Counted from the first letter of the stretch, positions 5,719 to 8,700 are shown. The stretch: DNA of 55,029 nucleotides from a virus (IMGVR_UViG_2859793810_000007); one strand, 5' to 3'. Notes: generated by a model from the sequence alone, not told the origin. Translations and numbers: made by a program.

Positions 5719-8700
5719 TCAGCTGATACTGATACCTGCTGTGGATTTCTTCATCACAACAACCAGCAAATCGCTGATACTTGCTGTGGGATACCAGCCA
5801 TTTACCAGCCATGCCGATACAGAAAACTCCAGCGTCATGTGACCGTGACCGGCAGGCATATCAATAACACCCGTATATATCAGCGTATTATCCAGGGTCG
5901 TTCGGTTATAAATTTCAGCACCGTTTTTCTTCACTATCAGGCGGCATGACGAATAAATATTGTTATTCTTCCGCTCATGTTTAGCACCGCGAAACGCCAC
6001 CGCGGGAATAACAATTTGCCGATCAAACGGCTGATCGTCATAAACCCTGACGGTAATGGTCCCTGATGGCCACCTCTCCGGTGCCCGGGAGTCCCGTGGG
6101 AAAGGTTTGCCCACTGTTTTAACGAGATCGCCTTCAATCTGGTTCGCGGACAATTTTCCCAGAACCCGACAGTTCTTATTAATCGTGACGTTGTTGAGCG
6201 TCCCGGAGTTCGCGTTCACGTTACCGCTGATATCGGCATTTTTCGCCGTCAGCCGTCCGCCAGGTGTCAGGGAAAATGCCGGAGGATTACCGCCGCTGGT
6301 AATGGTCGGAGCCGTCAGGCGTTTCAGGAACACGTCGTTCATGAATATCTGATCGCCCTGACCAACAAACATCGGCTTTGTGTTGCCATTCGCAGGATTA
6401 ATCATCGCAATCCTGTCTGCCGCCAGCAGCACCTGACTCTGCATTCCTGCTGGCGTATTCTCAATACCGGCACCGATACCCGCAATATAAAGGCGTCCGT
6501 CCTTCATCTGTTGCAGCTTCACAGCCCACATGCTGTTCAGGTTATTATTTGTATCAACCTGAACTTTCTGTATCTGCTGGATTGCAGCACTCTGATTTTC
6601 CAGTTTTTTATTGACGGTTTGCGTGATTTCATTGCTGACATTCGTAATGGACGTCCTGATTTCAGTCAGGTCCGGCGCAAGCTGACCGTTATCAATCTGC
6701 GTCCACAACTCCTTGCCGAGATGCGTTTTATTGATCAACCCTTTATAAAAACTCAGATAACCTTCCGCATCATCGCTCGCCCGACCGACGGCCTCCACAA
6801 ATGCCGATTTGCCAACGGTGTTCACACTGCGAACGTAAAAATAATAATCATGGCCCGGCCTGATATTGATACTGGCGGCTATCCAGTACAGCGCCGTGCC
6901 AAGATAGCGGGCGCTGGTTTCAACCTGCCTGATATCCGCAATCCGCTTTTCCGAAAACCAGAACTCAAACTGCACCGTCGGGTCATATACAGCCAGTTTC
7001 GGGACCACCGTTATCTGAAAATACCCCGGTATCAGTTCAATAGTGACAGGCGCTGCCGGTGCCGCAATCCGGAACGATACCGACGCCGGATCGCCCTGCT
7101 GCCCCGGGCATTTACCGCCCGGACTGTCAGACTGTAATTCCCCAGCGCCAGCTGCCTGAAGCGGTATGTGGTTTCCGTCGTCCTGGCTGTGCTGACCAGC
7201 CGCTCACTGCCGTCGTCCGCTGCCACGGTCAGGCGAAGCAGGAAGCTCACACCCTTCACCACCTTCGGCGTGTCCCATCGCGCCAGCACCTGATATTCCC
7301 CGCTGTCTGCGGTGACTTCGGCGGTCAGATGCTGCACCGCTGGCGGCGTGACACCATTCACCGTGCCGCGCCGGTCACCGTCAAAGTGTGCCCCGTTATC
7401 CACGATGGCCTCTTTTTCCGGCACATGCTGCACGGCGGTGATGGCATACGTGCCGTCGTCGTTCTCACGGATACTCACGCAGCGGAACAGGCGCTGGCGC
7501 AGCGTCGGCAGCTTCAGCCCCCACACGCTGTATTCTGCAACGCCGTCAGGAACCCGGCTCACTTTCACCTTCACGCCGTCGGTGACGGACTGAACCTCCA
7601 CGCTGACCGGATTGCCATTTCCGTCAACCAGGCTTATCAGCGTGGTACCGGAGGACGGCAGCGTGATTTCACGGTCGAGCGTCAGCGTCCGGGTCTGGCT
7701 GTTCACCGCCAGTACGCGACCACCGGTGCTGATACCGGCATAATCATCATCGCAGATTTCAATGACATCACCCGGTACATGGCGAAGCCCTTCTGCGCCG
7801 ACGCTGAAGTCCACGGTCTGCGTTTCCAGCAGTTCCGTTTTAATCAGCCACAGCCCGGCGCGGTGCGCCTGTCCCCGGCTGGTACAGCCAAAGGCATCCA
7901 TCTTCGTGACGTTACGACCGTAACGGACAATGGCCTGCGTGTCCTCCACAAGCTCTGTCGCCGTCTCATGACCGTTGTCCGGATCAATCCAGTTCACCTC
8001 AACGACATTATGGCGGTCCTTCAGGGCGCTGAAGCTGTAGCGGAACGGCGCGCCATCATCCGGCATCACCACATTACTGCGGTTATAGGTCCACACTTTA
8101 TCCGACGGTCGGTCCTGCACGAACGTCAGCGTCTGCCCGTTCCATACCGGCATACAGCGCATCGCCGAGCAGAAATCACTGAGAACATCCCACGCCTTAC
8201 GCTGTGTGGTCAGGTAAGCGTTACAGGTGATGCGCGGCTCCGTGCCGCCAAATCCGTCCGGCACTGACTGGTCGCAGTACTGGCCGATGACATACAGCGC
8301 CCATTTGTCCACATCTGCCGCACCAAGACGTTTCCCCATGCCGTAGCGCGGATGAGTGAGCATGTCCCACAGACACCAGGCCATGTTGTTGCTGTATGCT
8401 GGCTTAAGCGTTCCGTCCCAGATACCGCTGTATTGCCGCGTCTGCGGGTTATAGTTCGACGGCACCTGCAGAATGCGCCCGCGAAGATGATAATTGCGAC
8501 TCACCTGCTGGTTACCGAACTGCTCTGAATCCACCTGCACGCCGACCAGCGCCGTGTTCGGGTAGCACTGTTTCACATCGATGATTTCGGTGTACGACGA
8601 CCAGAGCGTTTTGTTCTGCAGCTGGTCTGTGGTGCTGTCCGGTGTCATCCTGCGCATCCGGATATTAAACGGGCGCGGCGGCAGGTTACCCACCACCACC

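Follow-up and report, generated by a model that had tools for sequence, protein, structure and literature searches.

Closest described systems

Gene J of phage lambda encodes gpJ, the tip attachment or host-specificity protein of the TipJ family, an uninterrupted protein of 1132 amino acids (aa) whose gene has M, L, K and I upstream and lom and stf downstream. In Shigella, ipaH islands, of which islands I–V have been named as characterised islands (PMC4226921), hold ipaH beside lambda-type tail genes, together with many insertion sequences (IS) and pseudogenes. Broken copies of J itself are also on record: in RefSeq, the E. coli strains FDAARGOS_944, ExPEC XM, F5505-C1 and SCU-306 carry a gene labelled by NCBI as 'phage attachment tail tip protein J, frameshifted'.

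The DNA analysed here, hereafter the window, is a viral stretch of 55,029 nucleotides (nt) that is 100% identical over 19,197 nt to locus L008 (CP026788.1), a record of S. flexneri 2a ATCC 29903 (PMC9430107, PMC9455713). The element in it is one of the Shigella ipaH islands (PMC4226921, PMC9046306), with the same tail genes, IS elements and pseudogenes and no essential difference: it is one such island, in the type strain, plus a strain-restricted lesion in J. The gene order around J matches that of lambda and, by sequence, domains and synteny, the gene would be classed as a lambda-type J. It nevertheless lacks the single uninterrupted open reading frame (ORF) of a TipJ gene, since it is split at 7102–7105 and broken after residue 699, whereas lambda gpJ is uninterrupted. 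The RefSeq pseudogenes have lost the identical base, a run of five cytosines (C5) having become a run of four (C4), on other J haplotypes that differ from the window by 57 to ~230 nucleotides. The J lesion is thus nothing new in kind, belonging to the known class of pseudogenes in defective Shigella ipaH prophages, and the identical lesion has already been flagged as frameshifted by RefSeq in E. coli relatives.

An ipaH prophage at the lambda attachment-site region

The left part of the window, from the chromosomal junction to the tail-tip assembly genes, is laid out as follows.

1–477, plus strand: ybhB, the chromosomal junction beside bioA, which is the lambda attachment-site region
1060–2823, plus strand: ipaH, intact, 587 aa, with LRR_TTSS and NEL E3 ligase domains; prophage cargo
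5052–5651, minus strand: lom homologue (Ail/Lom outer-membrane protein), immediately downstream of J, an order shared with lambda
9197–5719, minus strand: gene J, split by loss of one base
9258–11572, minus strand: tail-tip assembly genes I (9258–9800), K (9797–10540), L (10545–11243) and M (11243–11572), upstream of J

The ipaH gene has ybhB on one side and the tail-fibre genes on the other. Lambda-type genes for tail and head fill the minus strand as far as ~24865, at which point they are interrupted by an IS3-family element; beyond it lie further IS copies, pieces of genes for phage replication and lysis, a second phage remnant and dcuC. This second remnant (42977–51775) is unrelated, encoding Phage_portal_3, a Mu F-like protein, DUF2213 and a major capsid protein, then a 544-aa Mu-type transposase, apparently truncated at its C terminus, and a protein with a Mu repressor-like DNA-binding domain; dcuC comes after it, at 52495–53982.

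Complete S. flexneri genomes contain two copies of a ~13-kb tail module with ipaH, few or no single-nucleotide polymorphisms (SNPs) apart, as compared at loci L086–L094 (CP055138, CP034931, CP102218 and CP189683). One copy lies at ybhB/bioA and carries a 587-aa IpaH, and the other lies beside dinI and an isochorismatase gene and carries a 583-aa IpaH; J is intact in both copies in the S. flexneri genomes sampled. The near-identity of the two copies suggests recent duplication or continuing gene conversion.

Loss of one base divides gene J between two frames

The original prediction, made from the sequence of the window, was of a frameshift in J caused by one base missing from a CCCCGGG tract at 7102–7108. 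The plus-strand tract is found at exactly these positions, and the missing base is borne out by relatives, which have C5 where the window has C4. As had also been proposed, J falls into two frames.

7102–7105, minus strand: frameshift site, C4 in place of C5, within the CCCCGGG tract at 7102–7108
7032–9197, minus strand: N-terminal fragment of J, 721 aa, with its stop at 7032–7034
5719–7101, minus strand: C-terminal reading frame of J, the frame being open from 7203 to 5722

On the coding strand, the window has G4 and intact alleles have G5, so that GCC CGG GGG CAG becomes GCC CGG GGC AGC. The closest intact relatives, namely two copies in E. coli FDAARGOS_943 and one in the EIEC strain CFSAN029787, read CTGCCCCCGGGC compared with CTGCCCCGGGC in the window, the sole difference at the J site being one extra C in the run, and the split is not the product of chance. 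A SNP at 7117 has no bearing on the deletion: the G in the window is the common state, as in lambda, and carries no information.

The 721-aa product consists of 699 native residues followed by 22 out-of-frame residues, and gene callers give the C-terminal part as a 429-aa ORF starting at GTG 7008. The Pfam domains FNIII-A_GpJ, Phage-tail_3 and Ig_J fall in the 721-aa fragment, and Ig_J_second, Phage_Tail_Tip and the receptor-binding Ig_GpJ_C in the 429-aa fragment; across the two fragments, these six domains (E-values 1e-31 to 1e-41) stand in the order expected of TipJ. The break separates the C-terminal domains from the N-terminal part. The C-terminal fragment is unlikely to be translated from GTG 7008, because no Shine-Dalgarno sequence is seen in ttttcagataacg, which precedes this codon, and the fragment would lack the hub part anyway.

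Insertion of one G into the coding-strand GGGG gives a single J ORF of 1159 aa, for which 1150 aa had been guessed. The repaired protein is 82% identical to lambda gpJ overall and at least 90% identical over its first 800 residues, whereas the C-terminal ~350 residues diverge (30–77% identity per 100-residue block); the six Pfam domains are the same as in lambda gpJ and in identical order. The original prediction also held that the lambda protein reads across the frameshift point, and the repaired reading indeed falls at lambda residues 695–709 (NC_001416). Just before this point, lambda has W and the window has R, which is the normal residue in the J lineage of the window.

The shortened run is a minority state

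Exact look-ups place the repaired 1159-aa protein, which bears the name 'host specificity protein [Shigella flexneri]' (UniRef Q81ZS6_SHIFL), on at least 1000 contigs; its listing spans 4943 index blocks, of which 79 include contigs over 1 Mb. The truncated 721-aa product occurs on 4 contigs and the 429-aa C-terminal ORF on 6. Conservation across assemblies was considered as proof of the lesion and is weakened by these look-ups, in which the intact protein is overwhelmingly commoner. The sister-genome comparison raised in the original prediction has a divided outcome: the same deletion is present in at least five other complete chromosomes and one public-run contig, whereas most S. flexneri have the extra base and an intact 1159-aa ORF.

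Intact alleles are found on backgrounds that are otherwise indistinguishable from the window. At the same locus, CP055138 and CP034931 show zero substitutions against window positions 1–15198 (15,198 nt), differing solely by C5 at J and by T8 in the tape-measure gene. S. flexneri SFBU1023, one of two species representatives matched in a scan of genome contigs (both with C5), is identical to the window over 8 kb apart from its C5, and the loci L029, L083, L087 and L089 have a J with one extra base and without substitutions. The J of the window is therefore disrupted relative to near-identical intact orthologues.

The same C4 is present in five other complete Shigella/EIEC chromosomes deposited under three accession series, namely CP026810, CP026776, UGYR01 (NCTC), CP044158 and E. 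coli FDAARGOS_944, of which CP044158 is strain AR-0423, distinct from ATCC 29903 (PMC9455713). Two contigs carry it as well, L025 from IMG/VR and one of 11.56 kb assembled in Logan from run SRR7186906; IMG/VR as a whole gives 3 C4 versus 57 C5. When complete E. coli genomes were searched with a 57-nt context of the site, 4 of the 40 best-scoring of ~5772 matching places had C4, most of the places beyond these 40 matching the query less closely. C4 occurs in none of the 62 phage records that match, so that phages isolated as virions lack the lesion in this set. CP026871 and CP026793, two chromosomes whose accession numbers are close to that of the window, have C5 at the J site. On a background that is otherwise identical, the lesion is thus the minority state.

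The prophage carries further inactivating lesions

J is one of several damaged loci in the same element.

3927–5030, minus strand: N-terminal tail-fibre gene (stf-like), truncated, 367 aa
11572–14614, minus strand: tape-measure gene, split into 726 aa and 276 aa at a T9 run (12483–12491; A9 on the coding strand)
20881–22474, minus strand: portal gene, split into 351 aa and 207 aa, with A6 at 21481–21486
24865–26128: IS3-family insertion sequence, 1264 bp, which ends collinearity with E. coli prophages
~35263–36508 and 47984–49251: further copies of the 1264-bp IS3-family element
32387–33226, 38621–39460 and 41327–42232: other copies of IS3-family (rve) transposases

In the portal gene, the window has A6 and an intact EIEC relative has A5. 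The annotation of S. flexneri 2a str. 301 shows identical portal fragments, the 351-aa one being spread over at least 1000 contigs; we take the accessions with portal fragments to include strains 2457T, 8401 and 2002017. Given this distribution, no capsids can have come from this prophage since early in the species. The stf-like truncation is due to loss of one 4-bp CAGY repeat unit at ~3930–3939, where the window has two units compared with three in relatives, which encode 471–485 aa; the 367-aa form is present on 111 contigs, including that of strain 301.

In the tape-measure gene, most relatives have T8 and an intact 1013-aa protein, and some have T7, giving 713 aa and 276 aa. All three lengths, T7, T8 and T9, are found across haplotypes and in Logan and draft assemblies; this run may be either truly hypervariable or error-prone. 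The IS3-family (rve) transposases number at least six copies, three of which represent one 1264-bp element and two of which are identical 279-aa ORFs, and they interrupt the early region of the prophage. Independent inactivating lesions in the portal, stf-like and tape-measure genes, together with the IS insertions, thus accompany the J lesion in the same element. The prophage is thus demonstrably dead, and J is therefore not under functional selection in S. flexneri.

The lesion is scattered over several J haplotypes

Within S. flexneri, three SNP haplotypes carry C4, and all three include C5 members too, so that recurrent mutation or gene conversion is needed to account for the distribution of C4. 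Gene conversion between the two copies per genome can explain the scatter, because no informative SNP lies closer than 1.5 kb to the J site.

Taking E. coli into account, C4 occurs on at least three to four J backgrounds: that of S. flexneri, that of FDAARGOS_944, that shared by ExPEC XM, F5505-C1, SCU-306 and the IMG/VR contig L023, and that of L024. The shared lineage is ~6.5% divergent from the window and some of its members have extra lesions in J: F5505-C1 has a nonsense codon at 273, SCU-306 has paired indels and L023 has one more deletion. Since three C4 E. coli records share a J lineage with a nonsense mutation and other lesions, the allele there is inherited and real. For unrelated prophages, the pattern implies that either the same J run was hit more than once or the allele was moved by recombination.

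A genuine deletion is favoured over consensus error and recoding

We consider it probable, though well short of certain, that the J lesion is a genuine one-base slippage deletion in a decaying ipaH prophage. Replication slippage in the G5 run of J (C5 on the plus strand) would have deleted one base, and the frame would shift after Gly699, with 22 wrong residues before the stop. The product would end short of the second Ig domain, the tail-tip fibre and the receptor-binding domain at the C terminus, and could not build or target a tail. S. flexneri would have retained the prophage as the carrier of the type III effector gene ipaH, and particle production had already been lost before the J deletion, with the portal broken in the S. 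flexneri ancestor, the fibre truncated and IS elements inserted; J would then decay neutrally, strain by strain. Directly seen are the J lesion, its intact ancestral state, the damage elsewhere in the element and the reappearance of C4 in further assemblies; slippage is the probable mechanism, and the base is probably missing in the living strain and not just in the assembly.

The competing view that deserves most attention, although we regard it as unlikely, is an assembly error, a caveat that the original prediction had itself named: the strain would have C5 and an intact J, and the long-read consensus of CP026788 would have under-called the homopolymer in CCCCCGGG by one base. Sister genomes with zero substitutions over 8–15 kb differ from the window solely in homopolymer length, and indel-only homopolymer differences without SNPs are a classic signature of long-read consensus error. 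The imbalance between at least 1000 contigs with the intact protein and 4 with the truncated one, and the scatter of C4 over three SNP haplotypes, point in the same direction, and the complete genomes with C4 are presumably all PacBio-era, long-read-only assemblies. A precedent is provided by CP026810.1 (L009/L015), whose accession suggests the same deposit series as the window: it is one base short at four of the other five C5GG sites in the vicinity, the C being lost at window equivalents 1543, 2875, 9539 and 17302, with the result that ipaH, gene I and others are split. No indel was found in CP026810 at any C5 run not followed by GG, and its losses look like a context-specific systematic consensus error in the same sequence context as the J site. 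Against this stands the behaviour of the other assemblies. The window keeps C5 or C6 at five other sites of the form C(5 or more)GG in 1–19290, including the octamer at 2875, which is identical to that of the J site and intact in the window. CP026776, UGYR01 and CP044158 are also correct at all five other C5GG sites, the only shortening shared being that in J; a context error would strike 7102 in each of the four assemblies, and spare 2875 throughout, with a chance of at most ~0.004. The same wrong call would, moreover, have to arise independently in at least five assemblies from three accession series and in the contig of SRR7186906, which has clean repeat-bounded ends like other Logan contigs of the region, suggesting that it was built from accurate short reads. 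The neighbouring accessions CP026871 and CP026793 were called C5, as was the 57-nt context in nearly all complete E. coli genomes inspected (best 40 of ~5772). Thus, the window shows the one-base homopolymer change without substitutions relative to sister genomes that long-read error would leave, but the change is reproduced elsewhere and comparable contexts are unaffected. Because C4 recurs, the other C5GG sites are correct and most of the E. coli records inspected and all 62 phage records lack C4, a site-specific systematic error at the J run is hard to sustain.

Explanations in which the two frames serve a function fare much worse than the genuine deletion. Full-length J might be made by programmed −1 ribosomal frameshifting on C CCG GGG or by transcriptional slippage, given that the two frames overlap at a short G/C run and that S. 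flexneri uses transcriptional slippage in mxiE, at much longer A/T runs; with 4 nt, however, the run in J falls short of what polymerase slippage requires. Relatives do not share the two-frame layout, having one in-frame ORF with the same amino acids and C5, and further frameshifts accumulate in sister J copies. Read in the zero frame, GCC CGG GGC does not form an X XXY YYZ heptamer, and the 103 nt downstream fold no better than shuffled sequences (z = −1.0; 35 of 200 shuffles at least as good). With the site unconserved, no canonical heptamer and no significant downstream fold, programmed frameshifting was rejected, and we give recoding of either kind practically no credence. A reversible switch, in which the J run toggles between five and four bases at a raised rate and so causes phase variation of J, is scarcely more credible. 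It would fit the presence of both C4 and C5 on haplotypes without substitutions between them, and of C4 on several J backgrounds. Five-base runs are, however, far below the lengths known for contingency loci, and with the portal broken and no particles formed there would be nothing to control; gene conversion between the two ~13-kb copies per genome, or errors, would be a simpler explanation.

Significance of the lesion and further frameshifts in J

The split of J amounts to the ordinary decay of a gene, or perhaps to an error of sequencing, and is of no wider importance; it is at most one more dated lesion in the decay of Shigella ipaH-carrying prophages, and it shows that J outlasted the portal gene by a long time in most S. 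flexneri. It carries a warning for annotation: here, the type-strain record CP026788 differs from sister genomes solely by homopolymer lengths, and pseudogene calls based on long reads only therefore need a short-read check before they are interpreted. Mildly notable is the occurrence of the same one-base loss on several J haplotypes, via a slippage hot spot or recombination. In its strongest form, the former possibility would make the J run (CCCCCGGG) a recurrent slippage hot spot that preferentially, and perhaps reversibly, switches off prophage tail tips. This would explain both the repeated loss on at least three or four unrelated J haplotypes and the coexistence of the two states without substitutions, but we judge it to be highly improbable.

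Further J lesions are present in sister assemblies, comprising an insertion at 6480 (CP026776 and CP026871) and deletions at 7876 (CP044158), 7027 (SRR7285610) and 6609 (L049); these four frameshifts lie mostly within C/G or T runs. The Logan contig of SRR7285610 (L020), a single contig in the collection, has an intact C5 at the J site and no substitutions, and has lost one base from a C4 run at 7024–7027. The deletion at 7027 was not found in the IMG/VR scan. The resulting frameshift, 79 nt downstream of the J site, yields a 728-aa fragment. Differing lesions in the same J allele are as expected of a gene that would be drifting without selection.
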